DNA of 64,000 nucleotides from Minisyncoccota bacterium (GTDB lineage Bacteria; Patescibacteriota; Minisyncoccia; Phycocordibacterales; UBA9973), in NCBI GenBank assembly GCA_041664285.1, contig JBAYLA010000001.1, forward strand, positions 138,092 to 202,091. The letters are read 5' to 3'. A program made the translations under genes and the position numbers. Positions 26,946 through 55,434 of the stretch are shown here, one piece after another. The first letter of the stretch is position 1. Every line of letters starts with the position of its first letter. The notes beneath the pieces are model-generated. The model saw only the letters and a list, made by a program, of their open reading frames with translations. It did no database searches and was not told where the DNA came from.

Positions 26946-28649
26946 CTAGTAAACTTCCTGCTGGTAGCATTTTTCACAATAAACTATTTCCGGTCTATCG
27001 GGTGCATAGGTGGTTTCGAATTCTACATCGCAAGGCTTACCTTCGTGACTGATGTGCTCTTTGTCGCACAGGCAAGTTCTATGCCAAAGTTTGCTTGCGC
27101 CTCTATTTTTGAAACGCCTTATATGCCTACATTCAGGACAATTTCTTGGGATAGGTATTTGCATTCTTTTATAGAAAGAAAGTTCGTCTGTAATAATTCT
27201 GTAATTTTTGCTACATTCCGTACAAATAAAGACTTCTTTATTTACATCAAAGTCTGATGGTAGTTCTGAAATAGAATCTGGGAAATTTTTCCAATCAATG
27301 GTTTCTTTACCATAAGTTCCACGTTCAGTATCTTCCCATTTAAATCCTTTTTTCAGTGCTTCCTCTTTAGTAAGAGGGAATTCATCCATGGCTGAAGATT
27401 CGTTGTAGCCAAAAGCTGAAATTTTAGATGGATAAAAGTCTCCATAAATTCCTTCTTGTTTCATTTTTTCAATAATTTCTTCTCGTAATTTTTTGTATTC
27501 TTCTTTGGTATATTGTTTATTGAAAATACAATATGAACCTTTTTTTAAGTTTACACATCCAAAACAGTTATTCGAATTTGGGCAATTCACGCAATACTCC
27601 ATAAATTGGGAACCCCAACATATAGAACCACAAATAACATTTGATGTTTCAATCCCATTATTAAGACTATTGTAAATTAATTCAGCCCCACGTCCTGCGG
27701 TATTACAATCTACACAATCTTTTGCCCCACGCCAAACATGTATACTGTGGGCATTATCTTCTGCATCGTAAGAATGGAAACAATTACGATTATTTTTCAC
27801 ATTGGTCATATAATTCCCAGTAGAATTTACAGCATTAAAAATCTCAGCAAATTTTCTCGGTTTGTCTTCTATGAAATTCTGAAATTCTTTTTTAAAAGAT
27901 TCCACGCCCGAATGTGTGTCTAATTGAAAAGACTTTAATTTCTTTTCATACTCCTCTTCTGTATATGGTTCATTAAAAATGTGATATTTTTGTTGACGTA
28001 AATTTATACATCCAAGGCAATTCGTACATCCACGACAATCAAGCAGAAACGAGCTATCTAAACAGCTATAACAACCTTTAGAAAAACGTAAATTATTGCA
28101 GTCATAACAATCATCCACTTCATAAGACAACTCTACTTTATTAGTAAAAGAACAATCAACTAAATCTTTAGAGAGCTGAATCCAGTAACAATTTATACAA
28201 TTTTCGTTATTAGAGCTTTCTATGATCACATAGCAATTTTTATTATCTGCGGTTAAATTAAGATAACTACAGCGAACATCGTTTGTAGAAAATAGAGCTG
28301 GTTTTGGAACTTTATTCCAAAGCTTTTTCCATTGTTCAAAAAATGGTTTATTAGGATCATAATCTATGGCGTATTTCTTACTGTCTAAATCGTCACTCCA
28401 CCAGCAGTCTGGGCACCAGACTGGATAATTTTTATTAGGGCTAAAAGTTGAAATACCTTCCTTTTTACAATTATCGCATTGACGTTTATAGAAGCACCTT
28501 TCATTTCTGAAACAAAGTCGCAATTGCGCTCGACAATCTGGGCAAATTTTTGGTACTGATACTTTTACTTTTTCATAAAATCCAAAATCATCAGGTTCAA
28601 TAACGAAATCCTTCTTACAATTTTGGCAATTAAGTGTCTCTCTGTTCAT
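26946..28649 (-). CDS. large cysteine-rich protein, paralog 1 (N- and C-terminal CxxC...FY...CPxCR zinc ribbons; internally duplicated Cys-repeat core)
   Basis: N-terminal CQNCKKDFVIEPDDFGFYEKVKVSVPKICPDCRAQLRL and C-terminal CTECSKNYRIITDELSFYKRMQIPIPRNCPECRHIRRF. Repeated C-x2-C units and two FGC(I/V)NL(R/K)..Y.(I/F)FN..YT.EEY.K blocks. By eye about 10% Cys. Ends ...PEIVYCEKCYQQEVY. Confidence 0.7.
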   Translation of the reverse strand: MNRETLNCQNCKKDFVIEPDDFGFYEKVKVSVPKICPDCRAQLRLCFRNERCFYKRQCDNCKKEGISTFSPNKNYPVWCPDCWWSDDLDSKKYAIDYDPNKPFFEQWKKLWNKVPKPALFSTNDVRCSYLNLTADNKNCYVIIESSNNENCINCYWIQLSKDLVDCSFTNKVELSYEVDDCYDCNNLRFSKGCYSCLDSSFLLDCRGCTNCLGCINLRQQKYHIFNEPYTEEEYEKKLKSFQLDTHSGVESFKKEFQNFIEDKPRKFAEIFNAVNSTGNYMTNVKNNRNCFHSYDAEDNAHSIHVWRGAKDCVDCNTAGRGAELIYNSLNNGIETSNVICGSICWGSQFMEYCVNCPNSNNCFGCVNLKKGSYCIFNKQYTKEEYKKLREEIIEKMKQEGIYGDFYPSKISAFGYNESSAMDEFPLTKEEALKKGFKWEDTERGTYGKETIDWKNFPDSISELPSDFDVNKEVFICTECSKNYRIITDELSFYKRMQIPIPRNCPECRHIRRFKNRGASKLWHRTCLCDKEHISHEGKPCDVEFETTYAPDRPEIVYCEKCYQQEVY

Positions 28650-28704
28650 GCAAAGATTATATCAGAAATGCCAAAAAAGTCTTTATTTGGTATAGTTAAC
28701 ACCT

Positions 28705-29673
28705 ATGAATCTTTTTTATCCTATTCAATTGTTAGCGGACTGGGTAACTTATACAGTTTTGAACCATATTCCAGGTACTTTGTCTGCTAATGCAATTAAC
28801 TTTTTTATCTTTGACACAATCAAGATATTTATTCTTTTAACTGTCATTATCTTTATTGTTTCAATCATTCGATCATATTTACCACCAGAAAAGATAAAAG
28901 GAATACTATCTCACAAAAATATTTACACGGGAAATATTACCGCTTCTCTTTTGGGAATTATTACTCCATTTTGTTCTTGTTCAGCTATTCCTTTATTTTT
29001 AGGATTTATTCAAGCAGGGGTTCCACTAGGGGTAACTTTTTCTTTTCTAGTAGCATCGCCGATGATTAATGAAGTAGCCTTAGTTTTACTTTTAGGAATG
29101 TTTGGCTGGAAGATTGCCTTAATGTATATAGTGAGCGGACTTATCATTTCTATTTTTGCCGGAATAATTATCGGAAAAATGAAGGTAGAAAACTTAGTAG
29201 AATCTTTTGTTTATGAAAATACTGTGAATGGAAATATTGTTTTATCAACTATGACTCAAAGAGAAAGATTAATTTATGCAAAAAATTATACTTTAGATAT
29301 TTTACAAAAAGTTTGGCCATATATTGTAATTGGGATTGGGGTAGGGGCTTGGATTCATGGATACGTTCCGATAGATTTTTTGGCTCAGTACGCAGGCAGC
29401 GACAAGTGGTATACAGTTCCAATTGCCGTGCTTATTGGAATACCTCTTTATTCGAATGCCGCCGGTGTTATCCCACTAGTATCTGCTTTAACAGAAAAAG
29501 GTGTTTCAATAGGAACAACTCTTGCTTTTATGATGTCTGTCACCGCTTTATCCCTTCCCGAATTTATGATTCTAAAAAAGGTAATGAAAATTAAACTGAT
29601 AATAATTTTTGCTGGAATCGTCGGAGTCGGGATAATGTTTACTGGTTTTCTTTTTAATTTGATTTTGAAGTAA
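28705..29673 (+). CDS. DUF318/ArsP-family permease with a TPFCSCS motif
   Basis: Multi-TM protein; ...ITPFCSCSAIPLFLGFIQAGVPLGVTFSFLVASPMINE... matches the conserved cysteine-containing core of this predicted permease family. Confidence 0.6.
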   Translation: MNLFYPIQLLADWVTYTVLNHIPGTLSANAINFFIFDTIKIFILLTVIIFIVSIIRSYLPPEKIKGILSHKNIYTGNITASLLGIITPFCSCSAIPLFLGFIQAGVPLGVTFSFLVASPMINEVALVLLLGMFGWKIALMYIVSGLIISIFAGIIIGKMKVENLVESFVYENTVNGNIVLSTMTQRERLIYAKNYTLDILQKVWPYIVIGIGVGAWIHGYVPIDFLAQYAGSDKWYTVPIAVLIGIPLYSNAAGVIPLVSALTEKGVSIGTTLAFMMSVTALSLPEFMILKKVMKIKLIIIFAGIVGVGIMFTGFLFNLILK

Positions 29674-29725
29674 ATAATTCAATTGAAAAAATCCCCAAAA
29701 ATGGTAGATTGGAACAACGGAGCGA

Positions 29726-29812
29726 GGAGGCGTGGCTGAGTGGTTGAAGGCACCACTTTCGAAAAGTGGCATCGAGGAAACTTGATCGTGAGTTCAAATC
29801 TCACCGCCTCCG
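29726..29812 (+). tRNA. tRNA-Ser (anticodon CGA)
   Basis: GGAGGCG-TG-GCTGAGTGGTTGAAGGC-A-CCACT-TTCGAAA-AGTGG-long variable arm-GTGAGTTCAAATCTCAC-CGCCTCC-G; type II tRNA. Confidence 0.85.
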
Positions 29813-29843
29813 CAGAATATTTAAGATTTGGTATAATCAAACT

Positions 29844-31586
29844 ATGGATTCGGAAACAAAATCTATAAATTGTCAGAGTTGCAAAAAAGACTTCGTGATT
29901 ACATCTGATGATTTTAATTTCTATGAAAGAATGCAGGTTCCTCCACCAACTTTTTGCCCGCAATGCCGAGTGATTAGAAGAATGAGTTTCTTGAATGATC
30001 GGAATTTTTACAAGAGAAAGTGTGACAAAACTGGAAATATATGTGTTTCTTTATTTCCTGAAGATTTTAAAACTCCAGTTTATTCACCCAAAGCTTGGTG
30101 GGCTGATGACTGGGACGCTATTTCATATGGTCAAGATTATGATTTTTCTAAACCATTTTTCGAACAATTTAAAGAATTAATGAAAAAAGTTCCTCAATTC
30201 TCCATGCAAAGTCAGTATACTACTCTAATAAATAGTGAGTATACAATGATGGGAACTTACAACCGTAATTGTTTTATGGTTACGAATACAGAATATTGCG
30301 AGGACTGTGTTTACACCACCTATACTTCTCATAGTAATAATTGTTTGGATACATACATGTGTGACAGCTCAGAATTTTGTTGTGAATGTATTAATGTCAG
30401 AAAATGTAGTAAAGCTATTTTTAGTATAGATTGCGAAGATTGTTTCAATATTGCTTTTTCAAAAAACCTTAAAGGTTGTCATGATTGCTTCGGTTGTTTT
30501 AATTTAAGAAATAAATCCTATTATTTTTTTAACGAACAATTAACTCAAGAAGAATATCAAAAGAAATTAGATGAATACGACACTGGTTCAGAAAGAAATG
30601 TTTTAAATTTAATCAAAAGATTTAAAAAAGAAAATTTAAAATATCCTAAAAAGTTTATGGAGGGAACGAAAAATGTAAAAGTTTCTGGTAATTATCTATA
30701 TCAATCAAAGAAAGCTTTAACCTGTTTCGAATCGCTTGGACTTGAAGATTGTAAATATTGCCAATTTTGTTTTTTGAAGCCAACTCGTGACTCATACGAT
30801 ATGACCCAATGGGGAGGGAATGCTCGGTTTATCTATGATTGTATGGGGGCTGGAGACAATGAAAGTATGATTAAATTTTCGATTGACTGCTGGGCTCAAG
30901 GTTCGAATATAGAATATTCTTATCACATTGTTTCACCTAATGATGATTTATTTGGATGTATTGGTTTGAAACATAAAAGATATTGTATTTTAAATAAACA
31001 ATATACTAAAGAGGAATATGAAAAATTAATTCCCCAAATTAAGCAACATATGAATGATATGCCCTATGTTGATAAAAAGGGGAGAGTCTATAAATATGGA
31101 GAATTTTTCCCAAGCGAGCTATCTTTTTTTGGTTATAACGAAACATTAGCTTATAGTTATTTTCCATTAACCCAAAAGGAAGCAGAGGAAAAAGGTTTAA
31201 ATTGGACAGAAATAAAAATAAATAGACATGAAATAACGAAAAAATCTTCTGAATTACCAGACAATATAAAAGATGTTGACGATAGCATTTTAAATGAAAC
31301 TATTGAAGATGAAGTCAATAATCGACCTTACAAAATAACTGAACAAGAACTTAAAATTTTAAGGCGATTAAATGTTCCCTTGCCACGGAAACATTATAAT
31401 CAAAGACATTATGATCGCGTTGCCAAAAGAAATCCCATGCAACTCTGTGTTAGAACTTGCATGTGCGACAAGGGGAATCATTTTCATGGTGCTGAAAAAT
31501 GCGAAATAGAATTTGAAACATCATATTTACCTGATAGCCCAGAAATAGTTTATTGTGAAAAATGTTATCAACAAGAAGTTTACTAA
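29844..31586 (+). CDS. large cysteine-rich protein, paralog 2
   Basis: Same architecture as paralog 1 (CQSCKKDFVITSDDFNFYERMQVPPPTFCPQCRVIRRM...) and shares the terminal PEIVYCEKCYQQEVY. The track ORF start at 29766 lies inside tRNA-Ser, so the real start is the ATG at 29844. Confidence 0.7.
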   Translation: MDSETKSINCQSCKKDFVITSDDFNFYERMQVPPPTFCPQCRVIRRMSFLNDRNFYKRKCDKTGNICVSLFPEDFKTPVYSPKAWWADDWDAISYGQDYDFSKPFFEQFKELMKKVPQFSMQSQYTTLINSEYTMMGTYNRNCFMVTNTEYCEDCVYTTYTSHSNNCLDTYMCDSSEFCCECINVRKCSKAIFSIDCEDCFNIAFSKNLKGCHDCFGCFNLRNKSYYFFNEQLTQEEYQKKLDEYDTGSERNVLNLIKRFKKENLKYPKKFMEGTKNVKVSGNYLYQSKKALTCFESLGLEDCKYCQFCFLKPTRDSYDMTQWGGNARFIYDCMGAGDNESMIKFSIDCWAQGSNIEYSYHIVSPNDDLFGCIGLKHKRYCILNKQYTKEEYEKLIPQIKQHMNDMPYVDKKGRVYKYGEFFPSELSFFGYNETLAYSYFPLTQKEAEEKGLNWTEIKINRHEITKKSSELPDNIKDVDDSILNETIEDEVNNRPYKITEQELKILRRLNVPLPRKHYNQRHYDRVAKRNPMQLCVRTCMCDKGNHFHGAEKCEIEFETSYLPDSPEIVYCEKCYQQEVY

Positions 31587-31634
31587 CTAAATTATATATT
31601 CAAAATTATTCAGATATTGTCACAGCACCCACTT

Positions 31635-32576
31635 TTATTTAGTATGTATCGTTAAGTAAATATCTTCTACGGCACGGACGGCGTCACCAGCTGCTATGTT
31701 GTTTTGGTGATAGAGAATATTAGTACAATCACCAGCCGCCCAGATGCCTGGGGTTTCTGTTTTTTGGGACCAAGCGTCAATTTTTATTTTATTTATTTCA
31801 TCAAGTGGCACTAAAGTTTGTACGAAATCAGTATTTGGAATTTGTCCTACTTCTACGAAAATACCTGAAACTTTCAATTCTATTTCTTTTTCAGAAGTTT
31901 TTTCCTTGTAAACTATTCCTTCTACAAATTTATCACCTTGTATCTCTAAAATATCTATATTTTTTAATATTTTAATTTTTGGATTTTGTAAAACTTTTTG
32001 AACAGTAATTTGATCTGCACGAAAAGTATCACTGCGGTGTACTATGGTTACAGATTTACAATAAGCGACAAGTTGTGAAGCGGATTCAAAAGCGGCATTG
32101 CCTCCACCAACCACAACCACATCCATATCTGCAAAAAGAGGTCCGTCACAAGTGGCGCAGTAGGTGAGTCCTTTGTGTTCTAGTTTATCAGCATTTTTGA
32201 CGGTAAGTTTTCTGCGTCCGCTTCCAGTGGCAATTAAAATTGTTTTGGTTGAGAATTCTTGTCCAGATTCTGTTTTTACAGAAAAGTCATTAGGATTTTT
32301 TGTAATATTAGTTACTTTTTCTCCTTCTTTTACTTCTAGACTATCTCCTGTATTTTCTAAAACATGACTTTTTAAATTATCAGCCAATTCTGCACCAGAG
32401 ATAGAAGGAGTACCAATCCAATTATAAATTTTCTCGGACACAATACTTTGTCCGCCCCATTCTGAAGTAATAAAGAGTGTTTTTAGTCTCTTTCTAGAAG
32501 CGTAAACAGCGGCTGCGCTTCCAGCCGGTCCACCTCCTATAATTATTAAATCGTATGTCATCTTTTTATTATACAC
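31635..32576 (-). CDS. trxB: thioredoxin-disulfide reductase
   Basis: DLIIIGGGPAGSAAA (FAD), the CATCDG redox-active disulfide, and VVGGGNAA (NADPH). Confidence 0.9.
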   Translation of the reverse strand: MYNKKMTYDLIIIGGGPAGSAAAVYASRKRLKTLFITSEWGGQSIVSEKIYNWIGTPSISGAELADNLKSHVLENTGDSLEVKEGEKVTNITKNPNDFSVKTESGQEFSTKTILIATGSGRRKLTVKNADKLEHKGLTYCATCDGPLFADMDVVVVGGGNAAFESASQLVAYCKSVTIVHRSDTFRADQITVQKVLQNPKIKILKNIDILEIQGDKFVEGIVYKEKTSEKEIELKVSGIFVEVGQIPNTDFVQTLVPLDEINKIKIDAWSQKTETPGIWAAGDCTNILYHQNNIAAGDAVRAVEDIYLTIHTK

Positions 32577-32597
32577 TAGAAATAGAAATTAAAATCA

Positions 32598-32681
32598 AAC
32601 TTTTTCCGGTACGGATTTTTTTCTGATGAAAAAAATCCTGAAGTTCTCGCGCCGTCGCACTCGAAACCCCCCAAAAGTTTA
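32598..32681 (-). repeat. 65-nt structured repeat family, copy 2 (reverse orientation, GCGC-gacg-GCGC variant)
   Basis: Reverse complement AAACTTTTGGGGGGTTTCGAGTGCGACGGCGCGAGAACTTCAGGATTTTTTTCATCAGAAAAAAATCCGTACCGGAAAAAGTTT. Confidence 0.7.
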
Positions 32682-32690
32682 TTTTAATTT

Positions 32691-33902
32691 CTATTTCTTA
32701 TTACGTCGTAAAAATGCTGGAACAGCGCTCCAGTCATCACCATCATCTTCAATAATTTCTTCCTTAACTTCTTTCTTTTCCATTTTCTTAATAAAATCAT
32801 TGTTACCTACACTTCCATTTTGTCTCCCGTTCTGCATATTATTTTGGATACTATTATTTATTTCTTTTTTTATTACCACTGGAGTTTCGTCTTTGAGAAG
32901 TTGGCCTACTACTGCCCCACTGTTAAAAAGATTTTTGCGAGGCATATCAGCAGGGAACGAGGTTGCTATCACGGTAACTTTTATTTCTCCCTTTTTCAAC
33001 TTTTCATCACGAATTGTTCCGAAGATTACTTTCGCATCTTTGTCGATTGATTCAGTAATTATTTTTGCGGCTTCTTGAATTTCATTAATAGTCAAATCAT
33101 CGCCACCAGAGATAGCGAAGAGCACCCCTTTCGCGCCGTGAATAGAAACTTCCAAGAGAGGAGAATTAATAGCAGCCAAAGCAGCTTTTTCAGCTCGCTT
33201 TTCTCCAGAAGCATTACCAATACCCATCAGAGCTGAACCAGCATTTGCCATGACAGCTTTAATATCTGCAAAATCAACATTAATGATACCCGGAGTAGTA
33301 ATTAAATCAGAAATACCTTCAACTGCTTGACGTAATACATCATCGCATTTAACAAAAGCATCTTTGAAATTAGTATTTTTATCAGCCAATTGGAGTAATT
33401 TATCGTTTGGAATAATAATGATAGCATCAACTTCTTTAGCCAAATCATCAATTCCTTTCTCGGCTATTTTCATTCGGTGATTTCCTTCAAAGAAGAAAGG
33501 TTTGGTTGTGACCGCTACAGTCAAGATACCTTGTTCTCTAGCTGCGCGAGCCACGATCGGAGCAGCGCCTGTCCCAGTACCTCCTCCCATTCCACAAGCT
33601 AGAAAAATCATGTCTGCTCCTTTGATGACATCTTGGATTTCAGACTTTGTTTCTTCAGCTGCTTTTTTTCCAACTTCTGGATCCATCCCAGCACCAAGAC
33701 CTTTTGTAAGATTTTTTCCTATATGAATTTTTTTCTCAGCCAGAGAGTGGTGTAAGTCTTGAGTATCTGTATTCATGCAAATAAAGGTGACCCCTTTAAC
33801 TTTAGAATTTATCATGTGGTTTACTGCATTCTTTCCAGAACCCCCGATTCCGATGACCATAATACGAGCAAAACTTTGTATTTCTTGATTTATTTTTGGC
33901 AT
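32691..33902 (-). CDS. ftsZ: cell division GTPase FtsZ
   Basis: IGIGGSGKNAVNHM...GMGGGTGTGAAPIVA tubulin/FtsZ signature. Confidence 0.95.
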   Translation of the reverse strand: MPKINQEIQSFARIMVIGIGGSGKNAVNHMINSKVKGVTFICMNTDTQDLHHSLAEKKIHIGKNLTKGLGAGMDPEVGKKAAEETKSEIQDVIKGADMIFLACGMGGGTGTGAAPIVARAAREQGILTVAVTTKPFFFEGNHRMKIAEKGIDDLAKEVDAIIIIPNDKLLQLADKNTNFKDAFVKCDDVLRQAVEGISDLITTPGIINVDFADIKAVMANAGSALMGIGNASGEKRAEKAALAAINSPLLEVSIHGAKGVLFAISGGDDLTINEIQEAAKIITESIDKDAKVIFGTIRDEKLKKGEIKVTVIATSFPADMPRKNLFNSGAVVGQLLKDETPVVIKKEINNSIQNNMQNGRQNGSVGNNDFIKKMEKKEVKEEIIEDDGDDWSAVPAFLRRNKK

Positions 33903-34061
33903 ATTTTTTAAAAAATTAATCCCTCGCTTTTGCTCGGGATCCCGACCTTAGGTCAGGACTTGTATGGAAACACACTACCACTAGAGCAAAAAAAAGCAAA
34001 CCAATTAAGTTCTGGTAATTATGTTCTAGTTTCTGGTCACTAGTATCTAACACTTAATTTC

Positions 34062-44320: not shown

Positions 44321-45691
44321 TTAATACCTATTAAGTTTAAAAGCAGCAGTTGTCTTAGGACCTACTATTCCATCAACCACTAATCCTGGAACACTAGTTT
44401 GGAAAGCTTTCACAGCTGCATAAGTTTTCGGACCAAATTTTCCGTCCAGAACTAAACCTGATCCTAAACTCTTTTGTAAACAAACAACATCAGCACCAGA
44501 CAAACCACGTCTTAAGGTTCTACCGATTGTACAAGTTGAAGAAAAATTACCAAGTTTCAAAGCAGCAGTTGTCTTAGGACCTACTATTCCATCAACCACT
44601 AATCCTGGAACACTAGTTTGAAAAGCTTTCACAGCTGCATAAGTTTTCGGACCAAATTTTCCGTCCAGAACTAAACCTGATCCTAAACTCTTTTGTAAAC
44701 AAACAACATCAGCACCAGTTGAACCACGCCTTAAGGTTCTATTAATTGAACAAGAAGAAGTAGGTGCTGACAGAACTCCGCAAGATATTCCCGTGATTAC
44801 ACTAAAACCTACGGATGAAGTACAACCTAATGGATAGCTTCCGCAAGGTTTTCCTGTGGTTATACTAAAACCGGAAGCAGAACTACAACCATAAGGGAGG
44901 CCTGTTGTTGGATCGTAATCAGAATTTGAAGAAGAATTTGAATTTGTTTGATTAATCACTGGCGTCACCCCACAAGAGCCACCCGTAATTACACTAACCC
45001 CCAAAGATGAGTTACAACCTAATGGATAGAGTCCACAAGATATCCCCGTGGTTGTACTAAATCCTGAAGTAGAAGAACTACAACCGCAAAGGAGACCTGT
45101 ATTTTGATCGTAACCAGAAATTAAACAAGTTGAGGTAGAATTTGAATTATTTAAATTACCTGAAGTAACCGAAATACTCGAAGTATTAGAATTATTTAGA
45201 TTATTTGAATTAGTCGAATTGGGGGAGGTTTTTTCTGACGTTTTCTCTATACAAGACTTTCCTGTGGTTGGACTAAAACCCGAAGAAGAAGAACTACAAC
45301 CACAAAGGAAACCTGTTGTTAAATCATGATCATTTACACAGTTTGGATCAGAAAAAGATGTGTTAGGTTGTACAGTGCCACAATATTCTCCCTTATTTGT
45401 AAGCCAATCTGTAGCTGCTGAGCAACCACAACTAAAACCTGTCGTTGTATCATAACCATTTTCACAAGTCGGATCAGAAGATGTGAAAGTTGCAGAATTT
45501 GCTTTGACGCAACTTTCTCCTGTAAATATATTATAGCCAGAAGTTATACTACTACAGCCACTAGCCACACTAGTACCACTGCTCACACTAGTACTACCAG
45601 TTACTATAGTTGCATTTGCAGAGTTTGTATTAAATAAAAACAAACCTAAAACAAAGATAAAAGTAAGCGAAATTAATTTATATTTTTTCAT
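44321..45691 (-). CDS. secreted cysteine-rich repeat protein with two C-terminal peptidoglycan-binding (PG_binding_1-like) domains
   Basis: Signal peptide MKKYKLISLTFIFVLGLFLF...ANA. Repeated DxxTG(F/L)xCGCS modules. Two copies of ...GADVVCLQKSLGSGLVLDGKFGPKTYAAVKAFQTSVPGLVVDGIVGPKTTAA.... Start moved to M42 of the track ORF. Confidence 0.6.
   Translation of the reverse strand: MKKYKLISLTFIFVLGLFLFNTNSANATIVTGSTSVSSGTSVASGCSSITSGYNIFTGESCVKANSATFTSSDPTCENGYDTTTGFSCGCSAATDWLTNKGEYCGTVQPNTSFSDPNCVNDHDLTTGFLCGCSSSSSGFSPTTGKSCIEKTSEKTSPNSTNSNNLNNSNTSSISVTSGNLNNSNSTSTCLISGYDQNTGLLCGCSSSTSGFSTTTGISCGLYPLGCNSSLGVSVITGGSCGVTPVINQTNSNSSSNSDYDPTTGLPYGCSSASGFSITTGKPCGSYPLGCTSSVGFSVITGISCGVLSAPTSSCSINRTLRRGSTGADVVCLQKSLGSGLVLDGKFGPKTYAAVKAFQTSVPGLVVDGIVGPKTTAALKLGNFSSTCTIGRTLRRGLSGADVVCLQKSLGSGLVLDGKFGPKTYAAVKAFQTSVPGLVVDGIVGPKTTAAFKLNRY
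44324..44781. repeat. tandem duplication (2 x roughly 229 bp, about 95% identical) encoding the two PG-binding domains
   Basis: AGTTTAAAAGCAGCAGTTGTCTTAGGACCTACTATTCCATCAACCACTAATCCTGGAACACTAGTTTGGAAAGC... recurs from 44553 with few substitutions. Confidence 0.8.
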
Positions 45692-45766
45692 AACTTTGAT
45701 TATATCAAATAATATATAAAAGTATATCATATTAAAATTTTTTAGATTTTTTGTATAATGTAAACT

Positions 45767-46207
45767 ATGAAGCTTGATATGCTTACAAAAAGAGCTATAC
45801 AGCATACTCTCCATTGTTTGTTGGGGTGTTCGATAGGTGAAATCCTAGGTATGTCCATAACTACTTGGCTTGGTTGGGAAACACTAGTGAAGGTGATCTT
45901 TTCTATACCACTTGCGTTCCTTTTTGGATATCTACTCACTTCTTGGTCGCTTGTGCGCAGGGGTGTATCTTGGCGTGCAGCCATCAAGACTACGATTGCC
46001 ACGGACACAATCTCAATATTATCAATGGAGATAGTAGATAGTGTATTTCTATTTTTTATTCCGGGCGCAATGAATGTACATCTAGGTGATTTACTTTATT
46101 GGTTTAAACTACTTTCTGCACTTGTGACCGCCTTTTTATTTACTGTTCCAGTCAATCGTTTTTTTATAGCTCGAAACAGCGAGGAGCATCATGTGCATAC
46201 TCACTAG
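45767..46207 (+). CDS. hypothetical multi-TM membrane protein with an HCLLGCSIGE motif
   Basis: Track ORF, 146 aa, 4 predicted TM helices. Confidence 0.4.
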   Translation: MKLDMLTKRAIQHTLHCLLGCSIGEILGMSITTWLGWETLVKVIFSIPLAFLFGYLLTSWSLVRRGVSWRAAIKTTIATDTISILSMEIVDSVFLFFIPGAMNVHLGDLLYWFKLLSALVTAFLFTVPVNRFFIARNSEEHHVHTH

Positions 46208-48106: not shown

Positions 48107-48145
48107 TTGGTTATTTTAACATATTTTGATATAATAAAAAGTATA

Positions 48146-48246: not shown

Positions 48247-48265
48247 TATATACTTTTGCTTATTT

Positions 48266-48718
48266 ATGCTACATGAACAAATAAAAAATGGGATAAAGGA
48301 ATCAATGATGGCGAAAGATATTTTACGCTTGAAAGCTTTCCGGGCGATGTCTGCAGCTTTTACCAATGAACTTGTGGCTAAAAATAAAAAACCACAAGAA
48401 ATGCTAAGTGATGAAGAGGCTCTTGTTGTTATTACCAAGTTGGCCAAGCAGAGGCGTGATTCTATCGAGCAATTCAAAAAAGGAGGCCGAGCAGATTTAG
48501 TCAAAGAAGAAGAAGAGGAGCTTACTATTTTTGAAACTTTTTTGCCTAAACTAATGGATAAAAGTGAAGTAGAGAAAGTTGCCCGAGTAAAAAAGGATGA
48601 GCTTGGAATTATTGACGTCACCAAGAAGGGCATGCTGATGTCTGCCTTGATGAAAGATTTGAAAGGGAAAGCGGATGGGTCAATAGTTAAAGAAGTGGTG
48701 GACTCTCTTTTTGAATAA
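48266..48718 (+). CDS. GatB/YqeY domain protein
   Basis: 150 aa; N-terminal LKEAMKARDKLRL-like block (IKESMMAKDILRLKAFRA) and YqeY architecture. Confidence 0.7.
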   Translation: MLHEQIKNGIKESMMAKDILRLKAFRAMSAAFTNELVAKNKKPQEMLSDEEALVVITKLAKQRRDSIEQFKKGGRADLVKEEEEELTIFETFLPKLMDKSEVEKVARVKKDELGIIDVTKKGMLMSALMKDLKGKADGSIVKEVVDSLFE

Positions 48719-48724
48719 TCATTT

Positions 48725-49330
48725 ATGGATACGATTAATCTTCTAATTGGTTTAGTAGAACATAATCAAGTTCTAGCATATCTTTTTATTTTTATCGGGC
48801 TTATTTTTGAGGGAGAATTCTTTATAATTTTTACCGGAATTTTGGCACATCTCGGAGCTTTGAACTTTTGGTTCTCTCTTTTTTTTATTTTCTTAGGTGC
48901 TTTATCTAAAACTTTTCTTGGTTATGCTTTAGGAGAATGTCTTTATAAAAAATTTCAATACCATAGATTTTTTAAATATATTCAAAAACGAGTTTATAAT
49001 ATTTTACCTAGATTCAAAGCTAAACCATTTTGGTCTATTTTTATTTCTAAATTTATAATAGGTGCAAATAATATTGTTGTTATTTTTTCGGGTTTTGAGA
49101 AAATAAATTTCAAACTTTATTTAAAAGCAGAAATTTTAGCTACGATAGTTTGGGCGCCACTCCTTCTTTCTTTAGGTTTCTTTTTCAGCTATACTGCCTT
49201 ACATATAAGCCGTGAGATTTGGACATTCTCTTTGGTGATTATAGTTTTGTTCATAATATTCACCCTTTTTGATAAATTAGTATCTTGGCTTTATGAATTA
49301 TTTGAAGAATTTTACAATGACAAACAATAA
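48725..49330 (+). CDS. DedA/SNARE-associated family membrane protein
   Basis: ...FIGLIFEGEFFIIFTGILA... re-entrant motif and 4-5 TM helices. Confidence 0.5.
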   Translation: MDTINLLIGLVEHNQVLAYLFIFIGLIFEGEFFIIFTGILAHLGALNFWFSLFFIFLGALSKTFLGYALGECLYKKFQYHRFFKYIQKRVYNILPRFKAKPFWSIFISKFIIGANNIVVIFSGFEKINFKLYLKAEILATIVWAPLLLSLGFFFSYTALHISREIWTFSLVIIVLFIIFTLFDKLVSWLYELFEEFYNDKQ

Positions 49331-50252
49331 AAAATTAAAATTAGTTACACATAATGGATCTTTTCATGGAGATGACGTTTTTGCTTGTGCTACTCTAATT
49401 CTTTATTTAGAAAAAAACAATAAAGAATTTTCCGCCCAAGGCGGACCAGCCTCTGGCTGGGAAGTATTTCGCACCAGAGATCCTGAGATCATAGAGAATG
49501 GCGAGTATGTTTTTGATGTGGGTGGAATTTACGACGAAGAAAAGAATAGATTTGACCATCATCAAAAAGGTGGTGCTGGGAAAAGAGGGAATGGTATAGA
49601 ATATTCGTCTTTTGGTTTAGTTTGGAAAAAGTTTGGAATAGAAATTTGTGAATCTCAGAAAATTTTTGACACAGTAGATAGGAAATTAGTTTCTCCTATT
49701 GATGCTGACGATAATGGAATTGATTTATACAAAAATAATTTTGAAAACGTTTTGCCCTATACAATAAACGATGTTTTGTCTATTTTTTCTAAAACAGCCC
49801 TGGAAGACATAGATAAAGACGAGCAATTTTTTAAAGCAGTTGTTTGGGCAAAAGAAATTTTAAGCAGAGAAATAAAAAGAACCAGTGATCAAATAGAAAT
49901 TACAAAAATTATTCAGGATTTTTATAAAAATAGTCAAGACAAAAGATTGGTCGTTATAGACAAGCCGAAAGTTTCTAGACATGAAATTTATGATGCATTA
50001 CAAGATTTTCCTGAACCTCTTTTCATTGTTTACGGTGATAGCGAAGATTGGGGAGTTGTAGCTATGAGAAAAGAAATAAATAGTTTCAAAAACAGAAAAG
50101 ATTTTCCACAAAATTGGGGAGGTTTGAGAGAAGAAGAATTACAGAAAATTACTGGTGTATCGGATGCAGTTTTTTGCCATCGAGCACTTTTCCTAGCAGT
50201 AGCGAAAACTAAAGAAGGAGCTATCAAATTAGCAGAAATTGCGGTAGAATAA
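49317..50252 (+). CDS. MYG1/UPF0160 family metal-dependent hydrolase
   Basis: LKLVTHNGSFHGDDVFACATL N-terminal signature; conserved H/D residues throughout. Confidence 0.75.
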   Translation: MTNNKKLKLVTHNGSFHGDDVFACATLILYLEKNNKEFSAQGGPASGWEVFRTRDPEIIENGEYVFDVGGIYDEEKNRFDHHQKGGAGKRGNGIEYSSFGLVWKKFGIEICESQKIFDTVDRKLVSPIDADDNGIDLYKNNFENVLPYTINDVLSIFSKTALEDIDKDEQFFKAVVWAKEILSREIKRTSDQIEITKIIQDFYKNSQDKRLVVIDKPKVSRHEIYDALQDFPEPLFIVYGDSEDWGVVAMRKEINSFKNRKDFPQNWGGLREEELQKITGVSDAVFCHRALFLAVAKTKEGAIKLAEIAVE

Positions 50253-50265
50253 CAATTAGCTCATA

Positions 50266-50364
50266 AAATATAATTTTTCGCAGGGGTTTCGTAGGCTGTC
50301 GAGCCGAGAACTTCAAGATTTTTTAAGCTTCAAAAAATCTGTACCGGAGAAAAATTGATATTTT
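50266..50364 (+). repeat. 65-nt structured repeat family, copy 4
   Basis: AAATATAATTTTTCGCAGGGGTTTCGTAGGCTGTCGAGCCGAGAACTTCAAGATTTTTTAAGCTTCAAAAAATCTGTACCGGAGAAAAATTGATATTTT. Confidence 0.75.
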
Positions 50365-50384
50365 GTGAGCTAATAATTAAACCT

Positions 50385-51398
50385 ATGGCATTTATTGATG
50401 AAATGAAAATAGAAGCTTTCGCAGGACGTGGTGGAGACGGAGTCGTGCGTTGGCGTCAAGAAAAATTTGTACCAAAAGGTGGACCCTCAGGTGGGGATGG
50501 AGGCCGTGGTGGCAATTTCTATATTCTAGCTGTGCGTGATGTTCACATCCTTTCTAAATATAAAGCGAAAAAAAGTTTTTCAGCCGGACGAGGGGAAGAT
50601 GGTGGAAACAAAAGTCTTCATGGTGCAAATGGAGAAGATTTTTTTCTCGAGTTGCCAATTGGTTCTATTGTTACGAATCTGGAAACCGATGAAACTTGGC
50701 AGCTAGAAGAGGAGGGGCAGAAATTTATGATTTTGAAGGGTGGTTATGGTGGTTTTGGCAACGAACATTTTAAAAGTTCTACCAACACAACCCCTAAGGA
50801 ATCACGAGAAGGAGCGGAGGGAGAAAAAGGAAATTTCCGAATAGAGTTGGAGCTTTTTGCTGATGTTGGATTTATTGGACTTCCCAATGCAGGGAAAACT
50901 TCTTTATTAAATTCACTCACTAACGCAGAGGGACGCGTCGGGGATTATGCTTTTACTACTCTTGACCCAAATCTCGGAGATTTTTATGGATATATTATTG
51001 CTGATATTCCTGGAATTATTGAAGGAGCATCAGAAGGCAAAGGCCTCGGAGTAAAATTTTTACGACACATTAAGCGTACAAAAATGCTTGCACATTTAGT
51101 TTCTTTTGAGAATTTGTCTAAAGGTACAACTGGAATGATGAAAACTTATAAAGAAATTCGTAAAGAACTTGAAAAATATGATAAAAAATTAGGTCTAGGA
51201 AAAGATGGTCTCTCTTCAAAAGATGAAATAATAATTTTAACGAAATCTGATGTTGTAGAAGATTCGAAAATTATTACTAAAAAAATAAACGAATTTGAAA
51301 AATTAGGCAAAAGAGTTTTTGTAGTTTCGTTATTTGATGATAAAATGGTAAAGAAATTCAGAGACGAGCTAGTAAAGATTTTGAAAAAAGCTAAATAA
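50385..51398 (+). CDS. obg: GTPase Obg
   Basis: Obg fold MAFIDEMKIEAFAGRGGDGVVRWRQEKFVPKGGPSGGDGGRGGN... followed by a G domain GLPNAGKTSLL...DIPGII. Start at M11 of the track ORF. Confidence 0.9.
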   Translation: MAFIDEMKIEAFAGRGGDGVVRWRQEKFVPKGGPSGGDGGRGGNFYILAVRDVHILSKYKAKKSFSAGRGEDGGNKSLHGANGEDFFLELPIGSIVTNLETDETWQLEEEGQKFMILKGGYGGFGNEHFKSSTNTTPKESREGAEGEKGNFRIELELFADVGFIGLPNAGKTSLLNSLTNAEGRVGDYAFTTLDPNLGDFYGYIIADIPGIIEGASEGKGLGVKFLRHIKRTKMLAHLVSFENLSKGTTGMMKTYKEIRKELEKYDKKLGLGKDGLSSKDEIIILTKSDVVEDSKIITKKINEFEKLGKRVFVVSLFDDKMVKKFRDELVKILKKAK

Positions 51399-51401
51399 TT
51401 T

Positions 51402-52832
51402 ATGGCAAATAAGTATTATCCAACAATTGGACTTGAAATTCACGCAGAGTTAAAAACACAAACGAAAATGTTTTGTGGTTGTAAGAATGACCCAGATGAA
51501 GAAAAGCCCAATGTAAATATTTGCCCAGTTTGCATGGCACATCCAGGAGCCTTACCGGTGTTAAATAAAAAAGCGATAGAGAATGTGATAAAAGTTGGAT
51601 TAGCAGTTAATGGAACAATTGCTGACTTTACAGAATTTGATCGTAAGAATTATTTTTACCCAGATATTCCTAAAGGATATCAGATTTCTCAATATAAATA
51701 TCCAATAGTTTCTGGTGGTAAGTTGGCCGAAATGGATATTACTCGGGTGCACTTAGAAGAAGATACTGCGAATAATAAACATGATCGTGGAGACTTCTCT
51801 TTAATTGACTTTAATCGTGCCGGAGTACCTTTAATGGAGCTTGTGACCGAACCTCATACATTTTCGAATGCAGAAGAAGCAGCCAAAAAAGCAACTAAGT
51901 TTGCCAAAGAGTTTCAGTTGATACTTTGGTATTTAGGTGTGTCTGAAGCCAATATGGAGAAAGGTGAAATGCGAGTTGAGGCCAATATTTCTATTTCTGC
52001 AGATCCGAAAATTCTTGGAACGAAAGTCGAAGTTAAAAATTTAAATTCTTTCAGGAGTGTTGAACGAGCTATTAAATATGAGATAGATAGAATGACCAAA
52101 CTTTTGGAAGAGGGTAAGGGGTCAGAAATTGTTCAAGAAACGCGAGGGTGGGATGATTCCAAACAGAAAACATTTTCTCAGAGAACAAAAGAGGGAAGTG
52201 CAGATTATCGATATTTTCCAGATCCCGATTTACCAAAGTTGAAACTCCATGAAGCTTTTGATTTAGAGAAAATGAAAAAAGAATTACCGGAATTACCAGC
52301 AGAAAAACGTGTTAGATATCAAAAAGATTTTGTAATTAAAGACGAAGACATAGAAAGCTATATCAACGACCAAGTGCTGGGTGCGTGGTTTGAAGAAATT
52401 GCAACAATTTTAAATAATAAAGAATTAGTAAAACTTGCTTCCAATTATATAACCTCAGACTATGTTGGTCTTAAAAACTCTAACCCAGAAATTAAACTGA
52501 CTAAGCCAGAAAATTTTGCTGAGCTTATTAAGATGACAAAGGATGGCTACATTTCTTCCCGTGCAACAAAAGATATAATGGGTAGAATTTTTATTCATGA
52601 TGAATCACCAAAGAAAATTGCTGAAGAAAATAACTTACTTCAAACCCATGACGAAGGAGAACTTAAAAAAATAGTAGAGAAGATAATTTCAGAAAATCCT
52701 GACGTGGTTGCAATTTATAAAGCTGGAAAAGAAAACGCTATTATGTCCCTAGTTGGTAAAATAATTAAAGAATCAAATGGTTCTGCTAATCCTCAAATTG
52801 TTATTAAATTGTTAAAAGAAATGCTAAAATAG
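51402..52832 (+). CDS. gatB: Asp-tRNA(Asn)/Glu-tRNA(Gln) amidotransferase subunit B
   Basis: YYPTIGLEIHAELKTQTKMFCGC...NICPVCMAHPG N-terminal GatB signature and a YqeY-like tail. Confidence 0.9.
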   Translation: MANKYYPTIGLEIHAELKTQTKMFCGCKNDPDEEKPNVNICPVCMAHPGALPVLNKKAIENVIKVGLAVNGTIADFTEFDRKNYFYPDIPKGYQISQYKYPIVSGGKLAEMDITRVHLEEDTANNKHDRGDFSLIDFNRAGVPLMELVTEPHTFSNAEEAAKKATKFAKEFQLILWYLGVSEANMEKGEMRVEANISISADPKILGTKVEVKNLNSFRSVERAIKYEIDRMTKLLEEGKGSEIVQETRGWDDSKQKTFSQRTKEGSADYRYFPDPDLPKLKLHEAFDLEKMKKELPELPAEKRVRYQKDFVIKDEDIESYINDQVLGAWFEEIATILNNKELVKLASNYITSDYVGLKNSNPEIKLTKPENFAELIKMTKDGYISSRATKDIMGRIFIHDESPKKIAEENNLLQTHDEGELKKIVEKIISENPDVVAIYKAGKENAIMSLVGKIIKESNGSANPQIVIKLLKEMLK

Positions 52833-52836
52833 GTTA

Positions 52837-53703
52837 ATGAAAACCTTAAGAGAATATATAAAAGAAGCGGAAGAAAAAGGCGTAGCCATCGGGCATTTTA
52901 ATATTTCTAATTTAGAAGGATTTCATGGTGTTTACCATTCAGCCAAGAAATTAAATGTGCCTGTTATCATTGGGCTTTCCGAAGGCGAAGAAGATTTTGT
53001 TGGAAGGAATGAAGCCATAGGAATGATTAAGGAAATTAGGGAAAAAGAAAATTTTCCAATTTTTCTAAATGCAGATCATCACTATAGTTTTGAAAGAGTG
53101 AAACTTGCTATTGATGCTGGTTTTGATTCGGTAATTTTTGATGGTGCTAATTTAAGTTTTGAAGAGAATGTAAAAATTACTAAAGAGTGTGTGGAGTATG
53201 CCCATAAAATTATAAAAGAAACAGGACGAGATATTTTAGTTGAGGCAGAGATTGGCTTTATTGGTTCTGGTTCAAATATAAAAGACACAATTCCAGAAGG
53301 TGCTGGAGTTTTAACTAAACCTGAAGAAGCAAAAAAATTCGTTGAATTAACAGGCTTAGATATGCTTGCGCCGTCTGTTGGAAGTATCCATGGTTTGATA
53401 AAAAGTGGTAAACCACACATTGATGCAGAATTGGTTGCTGAAATAAAAAAGGCAACTGGTATTCCATTGGTATTGCATGGTGGTTCAGGATTGAGAGATG
53501 TTGACTTTACTAATGCAGCAAAGGCAGGAATTTCGATTATTCATATCAGCACTGAGATCAGGTTGTCTTATGACGAAGCACTTAAAAAGTCTTTATTAGA
53601 CAATCCTAACGAAACTACACCTTATAAAATATTACAACCAGCTGTAGATGCTATAGAAAAAGTAGTAGAAAACAGATTGAAACTTTTTAACGGAATAGAA
53701 TAA
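52837..53703 (+). CDS. fba: class II fructose-bisphosphate aldolase family protein
   Basis: ...LNADHHYSFE...VIFDG...HGGSG... class II aldolase motifs. Confidence 0.85.
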   Translation: MKTLREYIKEAEEKGVAIGHFNISNLEGFHGVYHSAKKLNVPVIIGLSEGEEDFVGRNEAIGMIKEIREKENFPIFLNADHHYSFERVKLAIDAGFDSVIFDGANLSFEENVKITKECVEYAHKIIKETGRDILVEAEIGFIGSGSNIKDTIPEGAGVLTKPEEAKKFVELTGLDMLAPSVGSIHGLIKSGKPHIDAELVAEIKKATGIPLVLHGGSGLRDVDFTNAAKAGISIIHISTEIRLSYDEALKKSLLDNPNETTPYKILQPAVDAIEKVVENRLKLFNGIE

Positions 53704-55434
53704 ATGAAAGAATCTAAAACTCCTAAATTTGACGCATTGATAGATAAAATTTTAGATGAATTAATTCCTCACGTTAGAATTTGCCCAGATTGCAAAAAAG
53801 AATTTAAGATTGAAAATGATGACATTGTGTTTTATAGAATATTTCGAGTTCCTCCATCTAAGCTTTGCCCTAATTGTCGCCAGAAACGTCGATTGGCCTA
53901 CGCTAATTATTCAAGTATTTATAAACGTAAGTGTGATGTTCCTGGTCACTCAGATATTATGATTTCACCTGTGGCACCTGTGATGCCTTGGATTACTTAT
54001 GATTATGAGACATATTATTCTGATGTTTGGGACCCATTTTCTTATGGGAAAGATGTAAAACAAGGAGAATCTTTTTTTGATCAATTTTTAAATTTATTGA
54101 AAGTTATTCCTCAGCCAGGAGTGCGTCGTGGTGAAAATTCTCCCAATTCTGATTTTAGTTTTTATGGGAAAAACATGAAAGATTGCTATTATGTTTTTGG
54201 TGGACGATATTCAGAAGATGTTATGTTTTCTTCCTCAATTTATCGTTCAAAACATGTTTTAGATTCTTACTCTGTTTACGATGTTGATACTGTTTTTAAT
54301 AACATTGGCACCAATGGAAGTTATAAAACAAACTACGCATATTTTTCTTCAAATTGTATTGATTGTGATTTTATTTTTGATTGTCGAAATTGTCAGAATT
54401 GTTTCGGTTGCGTGAATTTACGCAATAAGAATTATTGTTATTTTAATGAACAATTAACTAAAGAGGAATATAAAACAAAAAGAAAAAATATAGATTTAGG
54501 TAGTATTAAAACAGCGAAAGAATATCAAGAAAAATTTTTCAACTTTCTTAAAGAAAACTCCATTCGAGCTGTCAGAATTTCTCAATCAAATAATTGCTTC
54601 GGTGAAGATATTCGTAAGTCCAATAATTGTCAGCATTGTTATCAAGTTGAAGAATCAGAAAATTTAAAATATGCATCTTTTGCGATTGTTCTTTTAAGAG
54701 ACTCTATGGACGTAGGGCATTCTGGAGGAGCAGAGAAAATATATTATTCACAAAATTGTGGTACTAAATCTTCTAATATTAAATTTTCTTTTGCTATAAA
54801 AGAATCAATAGATTGCGAGTATATTATGTCTTCAAAAAATTGCACTAATTGTTTTGGCTGTGTAGGACTTCAGAATGCTTCATATTGCATATTTAATAAA
54901 AAGTATTCCCCAGATGAATACTGGAAAATTTTAGATGAAATTAAAAGTACGATGTTAATAAGTGGAGATTACGGAGAATTTTTTCCAATGTCTTTTGCTC
55001 CTTGTGCCTATAATAGTTCCTTGGCAAATATTTTATATCCAATGACGGAAGAAGAAGCAAAGTCAAATGGAGTTTTTTGGCAACAAGATACCAATGTTGA
55101 TTTAAAAGATCTGAAAAGCATTCCTGCAAGTGATTTGCCCGACAATGTAGATGATGTTACGGAAAGTCTTTATCAGAATGCGATTATAGGGTATTTTTCA
55201 AAAAAACCATTTAAAATTATTCCTAGAGAAGTTGCATTTTATAAAAAGAATAGATTACCACTTCCGACGGATACGCCTTATCAACGTACAATTGATAGAT
55301 TTAAATTTTTAAATAATTTTCAAGTTTATCCAGAAAATTGTTTTTCTTGCAATAAAGAAATTGAATCATCTTTTAGAAAAGTTGATGGATATAAACCTCT
55401 TTGTGAACAATGTTATCAGAGAGAAATTTTATAG
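53704..55434 (+). CDS. large cysteine-rich protein, paralog 3 (more diverged)
   Basis: N-terminal CPDCKKEFKIENDDIVFYRIFRVPPSKLCPNCRQKRRL; CRNCQNCFGCVNLRNKNYCYFNEQLTKEEYK and CTNCFGCVGLQNASYCIFNKKYSPDEY blocks; the C-terminal ribbon is partly degenerate. Confidence 0.7.
   Translation: MKESKTPKFDALIDKILDELIPHVRICPDCKKEFKIENDDIVFYRIFRVPPSKLCPNCRQKRRLAYANYSSIYKRKCDVPGHSDIMISPVAPVMPWITYDYETYYSDVWDPFSYGKDVKQGESFFDQFLNLLKVIPQPGVRRGENSPNSDFSFYGKNMKDCYYVFGGRYSEDVMFSSSIYRSKHVLDSYSVYDVDTVFNNIGTNGSYKTNYAYFSSNCIDCDFIFDCRNCQNCFGCVNLRNKNYCYFNEQLTKEEYKTKRKNIDLGSIKTAKEYQEKFFNFLKENSIRAVRISQSNNCFGEDIRKSNNCQHCYQVEESENLKYASFAIVLLRDSMDVGHSGGAEKIYYSQNCGTKSSNIKFSFAIKESIDCEYIMSSKNCTNCFGCVGLQNASYCIFNKKYSPDEYWKILDEIKSTMLISGDYGEFFPMSFAPCAYNSSLANILYPMTEEEAKSNGVFWQQDTNVDLKDLKSIPASDLPDNVDDVTESLYQNAIIGYFSKKPFKIIPREVAFYKKNRLPLPTDTPYQRTIDRFKFLNNFQVYPENCFSCNKEIESSFRKVDGYKPLCEQCYQREIL

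Follow-up and report, generated by a model that had tools for sequence, protein, structure and literature searches.

What might three related, cysteine-rich proteins do in a member of the Patescibacteria, and with which other gene products might they work? This question is raised by a 64,000 nt stretch of DNA from a Minisyncoccota bacterium (contig JBAYLA010000001.1, positions 138,092 to 202,091), which was analyzed as a whole and is called the window below. The window carries three genes for such proteins, termed p1, p2 and p3, at the following positions.

26946 to 28649, minus strand: p1, family member of 567 amino acids with 42 Cys (7.4%)
29844 to 31586, plus strand: p2, family member of 580 amino acids with 34 Cys (5.9%)
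53704 to 55434, plus strand: p3, family member of 576 amino acids with 27 Cys (4.7%)

All three belong to a large, unnamed family whose members, wherever the source record names an organism, were found only in Paceibacteria-type Patescibacteria of the Candidate Phyla Radiation (CPR). This family is genomically coupled to soluble VirD4/HerA-like ATPases, the coupling taking the form of reciprocal adjacency on the same strand. We rate its domain architecture, and the conserved gene module in which it occurs, as new and as lying outside every characterized kind of system; the building blocks, zinc fingers and a β-solenoid, are of familiar fold classes.

The three open reading frames (ORFs) lie where an earlier note on this DNA had placed them and have the lengths listed above. 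Its estimate of about one Cys in ten residues was too high, as the fractions in the list make clear. The median Cys content among window ORFs of at least 150 amino acids is 0.8%, which corresponds to a 6- to 9-fold enrichment in p1 to p3. The proteins align end to end, with identities of 38% between p1 and p2 and 30% between p1 and p3. The open frame of p2 reaches an upstream GTG at 29766, a start that overlaps a tRNA-Ser gene (29726-29813), and a separate gene prediction for this contig likewise arrives at 580 amino acids.

The size of the family became evident from database searches. A search with p1 gave at least 7325 significant matches, p2 likewise gave more than 7300, and p3 gave 1048. 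An exhaustive profile search returned 5449 clusters (50% identity), of which 2306 have E ≤ 1e-30; nearly all of the best 150 profile matches are 540-600 amino acids long and are matched end to end. p1 is identical to entry P0001 of the protein collection, 'hypothetical protein WCW93_01020 [Candidatus Paceibacterota bacterium]', and the best matches to p2 and p3 among those listed there have 83% and 80% identity. Every named member among the matches listed is a Patescibacteria 'hypothetical protein'. Furthermore, scanning GTDB with one genome per species revealed no fewer than 556 loci. Among the 80 best of these, the labels are Paceibacterota, Nomura-, Lipton-, Jorgensen-, Staskawicz-, Niyogibacteria or Minisyncoccia, apart from a few that are generic or probably mis-binned. 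Several of the matching genomes bear an unconfirmed 'Saccharibacteria' label in their NCBI titles. The family is essentially absent from a viral contig collection, where a single fragment at a contig end was found, and no defense or phage family of PADLOC or PHROGs matches p1, p2 or p3. No description of the family was found in the full-text literature, in which a Paceibacteria metatranscriptome paper covered proteins with signal peptides only.

Each of the three paralogs has its own orthologs in other genomes, with identities among the matches listed of up to 83% for p1, 83% for p2 and 80% for p3, and orthologs are retained across species at 60-83% identity. The existence of separate orthologous series indicates that the paralogs are ancient. 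The earlier note had proposed an expansion peculiar to this lineage, which is refuted by the separate orthologous groups and the larger arrays present in other genomes. It had also concluded from the shared C-terminus of p1 and p2 that the two genes were recently duplicated. Both proteins do terminate in PEIVYCEKCYQQEVY, as reported. Specifically, however, 6 of the 48 nucleotides encoding this terminal 15-mer differ between the genes, every change being synonymous, and the motif is also present in homologs from other genomes. These synonymous differences, together with the occurrence of the motif elsewhere, rule out recent duplication or gene conversion at this site, and the identity reflects sequence constraint on a conserved motif.

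To describe the architecture shared by these proteins, we used alignment A2, which holds 75 sequences and slices of which were compared profile to profile with hhalign. Residue numbers given here count Met1; alignment A2 and the structural model of p1 lack it, and hence their numbers are one lower. The order of domains is finger A, finger B, two successive units each made of a solenoid and a helix, an acidic middle region that is conserved, and lastly fingers A' and B'. In p1 these elements map as follows.

28509 to 28637, minus strand: finger A, about residues 5-47, C8-x2-C11-x24-C36-x2-C39, zf_Tbcl type
28392 to 28487, minus strand: finger B, about residues 55-86, C58-x2-C61-x17-C79-x2-C82, zf_Tbcl_2 / TIGR04272 type
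27864 to 28304, minus strand: β-solenoid I and helices, about residues 116-262
27450 to 27863, minus strand: β-solenoid II and helix, about residues 263-400, an internal duplicate of solenoid I
27240 to 27449, minus strand: conserved acidic middle region, about residues 401-470
26949 to 27239, minus strand: fingers A' (C476, C479, C504, C507) and B' (C526, C540, C558, C561)

The N-terminal ribbon had been described as recurring at the C-terminus, and the two copies are indeed homologous (hhalign probability 99.1%, E 1.9e-18), as are finger B and the last finger, B' (97.2%, E 3.6e-11). The Cys ligands have not followed the fold in every protein. All four Cys of finger A (C8, C11, C36, C39) and all four of finger B' are invariant in 75 of 75 aligned homologs, and only these two fingers keep their full sets family-wide. 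Finger B' retains the half with the x17-CxxC spacing, C540-x17-C558-x2-C561. In p2, p3 and their orthologs, three of the four Cys of finger B (all except C58) are gone, and those of finger A' are all or mostly gone, being retained only in the p1 group. Thus the claim of a repeated ribbon stands with regard to homology and fails for the metal ligands of the C-terminal copy in p2, p3 and their orthologs. Among the three window proteins, p1 alone retains all four terminal fingers; its finger B has the CxxC-x17-CxxC spacing that p2 and p3 lack.

Several observations suggest that these terminal ribbons are of the zinc-finger type, as the earlier note had proposed. Finger A has two CxxC pairs and a four-Cys site conserved across homologs, as expected of zf_Tbcl. 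The p1 protein matches zf_Tbcl (PF13451) at 19.9 bits (E 7e-4), zf_Tbcl_2 (PF23477) at 19.4 bits and TIGR04272 of NCBIfam at 16.5 bits, all of which are below the respective thresholds of 24, 27 and 36; the Pfam scan gave no zf_Tbcl match in p2 or p3. At E ≤ 0.01, zf_Tbcl matches 17 of the 75 homologs (best 4.7e-6) and zf_Tbcl_2 matches 11 of them (best 1.9e-7). The terminal fingers are therefore distant relatives of zf_Tbcl and zf_Tbcl_2 that fall short of certified membership. Small archaeal proteins of M. mazei made of a CxxC-x17-CxxC domain bind Zn, as determined by inductively coupled plasma mass spectrometry (PMC12704099), and by analogy the fingers described here may do the same.

The core between the fingers had been described as internally duplicated, and the comparison of its two halves bears this out (hhalign 99.9%, E 3.5e-35). 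The last coil of solenoid I reads C205-x2-C208-x2-C211-x2-C214 and is followed by NLR...FN..YTEEEY; beyond solenoid II, the middle region carries the near-invariant motifs YG.F.P,.YN.S.A, FPLT.EEA and a W. Residues of an inward-facing type (Cys, Ser, Thr, Val, Leu, Ile) recur at each third position of the solenoids, and autocorrelation of the solenoid I profile peaks at 12 residues and disfavors a lag of 18. A left-handed β-helix with an 18-residue coil was considered but appears less likely for solenoid I, where the sequence autocorrelation favors 12 residues.

AlphaFold2 models gave a predicted local distance difference test (pLDDT) score of 88.0 and a predicted template modeling score of 0.87 for p1, and values of 89.6 and 0.87 for p3, whose independent model has the same order of elements. 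In the p1 model, residues 270-350 have pLDDT values of 62-78, after which the values exceed 90. The predicted cores consist of very short strands (E--E--E in p1, EEEE--EEEE in p3), and an α-helix closes each of them. Foldseek searches against the PDB with these models returned only left-handed β-helix proteins, and these weakly (E ≥ 0.013, template modeling score ≤ 0.13), and a search of viral folds in BFVD gave nothing better than E 1e-3. Such matches represent a resemblance of fold class and not homology. The core may constitute a new kind of short-period β-solenoid, marked by Cys ladders and a four-Cys terminal coil and flanked by paired treble-clef fingers.

The earlier note did not recognize the family, and the searches agree. 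Pfam (2025 copy), NCBIfam 20.0, PADLOC and PHROGs contain no match for the core of about 450 amino acids in p1-p3, and Pfam applied to the 75 homologs reports the terminal fingers, below threshold, and nothing on the core. When the PDB was searched by sequence, be it with a single sequence, a profile or one finger in isolation, the matches were limited to weak LIM-like or C2H2-like ones (E ≥ 0.003), with LIM domains as the best weak resemblance of finger B'.

The abundance of Cys, 6- to 9-fold over the window median, might suggest that the proteins store or deliver metal or take part in thiol-redox chemistry, the CxxCxxCxxC runs binding Zn or Fe-S clusters or cycling between thiol and disulfide. 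Consistent with this view, conservation of the four-Cys coil in solenoid I exceeds 90% within the p1 group and the p3 group. In the p2 group, however, 44 of 45 orthologs have Leu in place of the first Cys of this coil, and the matching coil of solenoid II retains just one or two Cys (p2 itself carries three and one in its two solenoid caps). Elsewhere in the core, one paralog may have Ser, Thr, Val or Leu where another has Cys, and no Fer4, radical-SAM or metallothionein model of Pfam or NCBIfam matches. The substitutions and the losses in the p2 group together imply that most core Cys act as small residues for packing or as structural ligands that are optional, and not as a universal catalytic, redox or cluster site. 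The metal-storage and thiol-redox roles raised in the earlier note are correspondingly weakened, given how freely the core Cys are exchanged and that the p2 group has lost its CxxCxxCxxC sets.

No hydrophobic or transmembrane segment and no signal peptide were found in the family, for which the median of the maximum 19-residue hydropathy is 0.85. Finger A begins at residue 8, and an N-terminal export signal is missing. The family proteins are therefore predicted to be soluble proteins of about 575 amino acids without a signal peptide, and a structural role at the cell surface, also put forward in the earlier note, finds no support in a signal peptide or membrane segment.

To examine gene neighborhoods, we collected 81 related loci, each consisting of family members with 6 kb of flanking sequence. 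Family genes number 232 in this set; two or more occur together in 61 of the 81 loci, nearly always on one strand. The largest array, on contig JALLOO010000001.1 (bases 1-23440; loci L012 and L081), has 13 consecutive members on the same strand that fill 94% of 23.4 kb. Some neighbors in this array overlap by 4 nt, and pairwise identities are 36-58%. From these features, the arrayed genes appear to be old, co-transcribed paralogs.

Co-transcribed, translationally coupled paralogs suggest hetero-oligomers, and several such proteins with a predicted β-solenoid core might stack into self-assembling filaments resembling those of bactofilins. Genes for MreB, MreC, FtsZ or FtsA are also close by, both in the window and at two further loci. 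However, these cell-division neighbors are not conserved across loci, and no bactofilin model of Pfam matches the window proteins or the 75 homologs. Moreover, the Cys coil and helix cap both solenoids, which should block end-to-end stacking. We consider filament formation very unlikely.

The recurrent neighbor of the family is instead a soluble P-loop ATPase, present in 26 of the 81 loci that had been found through the family. It matches TrwB_AAD_bind, TraG-D_C, T4SS-DNA_transf and DUF87/HerA in Pfam as well as the HerA and mad8 models of PADLOC, and these partner ATPases lack a hydrophobic segment. In a reverse test, an alignment of 30 of the ATPases was searched against metagenome contigs, which yielded 80 loci. 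A family gene is present in 59 of these 80 loci, and in 41 of the 47 that are at least 10 kb long; it shares the strand of the ATPase and usually adjoins it. A relative of p3 with 58% identity is itself part of a four-gene array adjoining such an ATPase.

The partner ATPases fall into a long class (at least 560 amino acids) and a short class. Directly after the ATPase domain, a CxxC-x17-CxxC finger is found in 46 of 47 long ATPases versus 1 of 91 short ones. This finger matches zf_Tbcl_2 at 41.8 bits and is of the same type as fingers B and B' of the family. The two classes take part in a recurrent gene order, consisting of dnaK, a long ATPase, one or two family genes, a short ATPase, dnaJ and a gene for a 195-amino acid, multi-pass membrane protein that has no Pfam match. 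This order, in which two HerA/VirD4-like ATPases sit within the classical dnaK-dnaJ pair, was seen in loci L102, L107, L118, L122, L126 and L130 (for example, L130:3848-13254) and in similar ones.

These architectural features, coupled with the genomic association, lead us to propose that the family members are zinc-stabilized scaffolds, or client or adaptor proteins, of a VirD4/HerA-like ATPase that handles macromolecules. We favor this reading tentatively, with slightly less than an even chance of being right. Under this proposal, the terminal fingers would bind structural Zn and serve as docking modules, and the rigid solenoids would provide a scaffold or binding surface rather than a catalytic or redox center. 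The paralogs would be made jointly from translationally coupled tandem operons and would probably act together. Their probable partners would be dedicated, soluble P-loop ATPases of the FtsK/HerA/VirD4 type, which flank the arrays and whose long class bears a finger of type B. The family members are proposed as clients or adaptors in an ATPase-driven step that translocates, assembles or unfolds protein or nucleic acid because the ATPases and family genes lie inside a dnaK-dnaJ cluster in many genomes, and a connection to chaperones is possible.

Several observations weigh against this proposal. Neither such an ATPase nor dnaK or dnaJ lies beside p1, p2 or p3, and the window as a whole has none of these genes. 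The p1 and p3 orthologs are located among unrelated housekeeping genes: p1 orthologs adjoin mreB, tgt or the gene for ribosome recycling factor, and p3 is flanked by genes for fructose-bisphosphate aldolase and ribosomal protein L25, a position that is syntenic in a 66%-identical ortholog and in that close relative only. The members adjacent to ATPases mostly belong to other paralog groups that are about 40% identical to p1-p3. In addition, the 80 loci found in the reverse test are relatives of one ATPase with 66-96% identity, and part of the ATPase association may therefore be inherited synteny. Finally, Cys ladders in a narrow β-helix are otherwise typical of secreted, disulfide-bonded proteins.

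In a rival explanation, the family members are exported to the surface or to a host cell as disulfide-bonded, Cys-ladder β-helix proteins, with ATPases resembling type IV coupling proteins (T4CPs) recruiting them and DnaK and DnaJ keeping them unfolded. The flanking ATPases do match the coupling-protein families of type IV secretion systems (T4SSs), dnaK and dnaJ enclose the arrays, and large arrays of paralogs would suit host-interacting proteins. According to a review, cultured Saccharibacteria, which are a different lineage of the Patescibacteria, cannot do without a T4SS (PMC12857230). However, the absence of signal peptides and transmembrane segments from the family, and of a membrane anchor from the ATPases, is difficult to reconcile with export. 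The terminal fingers are homologous to the finger on a cytoplasmic ATPase and to small cytoplasmic proteins that bind Zn, and the 60-83% identity among orthologs is unusually high for effectors across species. Furthermore, among 5713 VirD4-like homologs in Patescibacteria, just 148 are near virB4 (PMC12102498), a small minority. Export of the family is in our judgment unlikely.

A second alternative overlaps with the scaffold and adaptor proposal. It holds that basic fingers bind nucleic acid and that the proteins act with a DNA translocase of the FtsK/HerA type in DNA uptake, segregation or RNA metabolism. The finger regions are in fact basic (isoelectric points 8.5 and 9.6), in contrast to the acidic core and middle region, and Arg residues that follow the second CxxC are invariant or nearly so in alignment A2. 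One of the families matched by the partner ATPase is the 'DNA-binding domain' of T4SS coupling proteins, the neighbors of p1 and p3 include translation and replication genes, and one source names family member P0435 a 'Zn ribbon nucleic-acid-binding protein'. This name is an automatic annotation and not the outcome of a test, and no known nucleic-acid-binding domain scored above threshold. The LIM domains to which finger B' is weakly nearest bind proteins. We regard direct binding of nucleic acid as improbable to about the same degree as export.

A more novel reading is that the arrays and the two ATPase classes constitute an undescribed, Paceibacteria-specific machine, for example one for chaperone-assisted, ATPase-driven assembly or export in support of an episymbiotic lifestyle. 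We hold this reading to be doubtful, somewhat less so than either alternative above. If it is true, the machine would also explain the thousands of 'orphan' T4CP homologs of Patescibacteria that are unlinked to T4SS genes.

The immediate surroundings of p1 and p2 had suggested a different set of partners. The earlier note pointed to a permease, a tRNA gene and a thioredoxin reductase gene around the two paralogs, and these features are present as follows.

28705 to 29673, plus strand: ArsP_1 permease, E 3.8e-79, with an FCSCS motif
29726 to 29813, plus strand: tRNA-Ser(cga), between the permease gene and p2
31635 to 32576, minus strand: thioredoxin reductase-like protein (TrxB), CATC active site, convergent with p2

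Because trxB is convergent with p2, the two are not co-transcribed. The physical adjacency of the ArsP permease and TrxB in this genome is the remaining point in favor of the metal or thiol system discussed above. When window neighbors were used as tblastn queries against the 81 related loci, some of which carry p1 orthologs with 80-91% identity in the best aligned segment, neither ArsP nor TrxB was found in any of them. FtsZ, FtsA and twelve other window neighbors were likewise absent from the 81 loci, with the exception of one PALP match. The local arrangement is thus real, and the conserved linkage of permease, paralogs and trxB that the earlier note had offered as a check is not observed. 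We infer that the permease and TrxB are chance neighbors of p1 and p2. An ArsP/TrxB metal or thiol system is largely refuted by this lack of conserved adjacency, and we give it very little credence. When the surroundings of p1 and p2 were scanned for promoters and terminators, promoter-like sites were rarer than in shuffled sequence and terminator-like sites were at about the chance level.

Other features of the window were observed along the way. An ORF resembling replication initiators of the REP_ORF2-G2P / RepSA kind (22775-23593) is followed by a gene for a large serine recombinase (23618-25297), whose 3' end overlaps tRNA-Glu(ttc) at 25259-25331 on the minus strand. The segment 22775-25331, which lies just upstream of the PALP gene and p1, looks like a small mobile element that has integrated at a tRNA gene. 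The VKOR/DsbB-like membrane protein listed in the earlier note probably corresponds to an ORF of 138 amino acids (16990-17406, minus strand) directly after a nucleotidyltransferase gene (16250-16993); it does match VKOR, but at 22.2 bits against a cut-off of 27.5.

A further Cys-rich protein was considered as a fourth paralog and rejected. This ORF (44321-45814, minus strand) encodes 497 amino acids with 4.9% Cys, an N-terminal hydrophobic segment, repeats rich in Cys, Gly and Ser (TTG(F/L)xCGCSS...) and two C-terminal PG_binding_1 domains. It is an unrelated repeat protein that is probably exported, and it is similar to extracellular proteins that bear peptidoglycan-binding domains and are reported to be highly expressed in archaea-parasitizing Paceibacteria (PMC10936435). 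Elsewhere in the window, an asparaginase-like gene (60457-61488, plus strand, 343 amino acids) is followed about 0.5 kb downstream by an ORF (62016-62525, plus strand, 169 amino acids) with the asparaginase N-terminal domain only, perhaps a pseudogene or a duplicate that has been truncated. The window has 12 tRNA genes in total, four of which (Leu, Lys, Leu, Cys) are clustered within 500 bp at 709-1213 on the minus strand.

Paceibacteria-type CPR bacteria have small genomes of about 1 Mb or less, yet some of them devote long stretches to this one family. A family that is large, conserved, taxonomically restricted and unannotated probably underlies lineage-specific biology, although the richness of CPR genomes in unknown families tempers the significance of any one of them. 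The reciprocal linkage to ATPases provides a concrete partner, and with it a possible account of T4CP homologs that lie away from T4SS genes. The value of these findings is in a defined and testable module, not in a solved mechanism.

How does this module compare with known systems? The terminal fingers share their Cys spacings, C-x2-C-x24-C-x2-C in finger A and C-x2-C-x17-C-x2-C in finger B, with the treble-clef fingers of zf_Tbcl, zf_Tbcl_2 and TIGR04272. The zf_Tbcl and zf_Tbcl_2 models cover just about 120 of the roughly 570 residues of a family member, and these Pfam families are themselves without known function. The proteins do not conform to the 4Fe-4S ferredoxin type or to other Fe-S proteins. 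The family motif C-x2-C-x2-C-x2-C lacks the CP of the CxxCxxCxxxCP type, and Fer4 is unmatched.

The core can be compared with the β-helices of insect antifreeze proteins (AFPs). The AFP of spruce budworm (1m8n) is, like the family, a narrow solenoid with small inward Cys or Ser residues at each third position. The 12-residue period of solenoid I fits insect AFP β-helices, such as that of Tenebrio molitor with its 12-residue TCTxSxxCxxAx coil. The Tenebrio AFP was not among the matches, and no sequence homology to insect AFPs was found. Moreover, insect AFPs are small, secreted and disulfide-bonded and have TxT ice-binding faces, whereas the family members have about 575 amino acids, zinc fingers, no signal peptide, and Cys that are exchangeable for Ser, Thr, Val or Leu. 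The hexapeptide left-handed β-helices (LpxA, LpxD, GlmU, γ-carbonic anhydrase), which were the top Foldseek matches in the PDB, are also solenoids of short strands, but their pattern [LIV]-G-x2-[STAV]-x differs from the inward spacing of three in the family, and Hexapep of Pfam matches neither the window proteins nor the 75 homologs. The curli protein CsgA (8c50) is a secreted amyloid subunit without Cys ladders or zinc fingers.

The partner ATPases can likewise be set against the canonical T4CPs VirD4, TrwB and TraD. They lack the N-terminal membrane anchor of these proteins, and one class bears a CxxC-x17-CxxC finger. Rather than relaxases or other T4SS genes, their neighbors are arrays of Cys-rich solenoid proteins together with dnaK and dnaJ.

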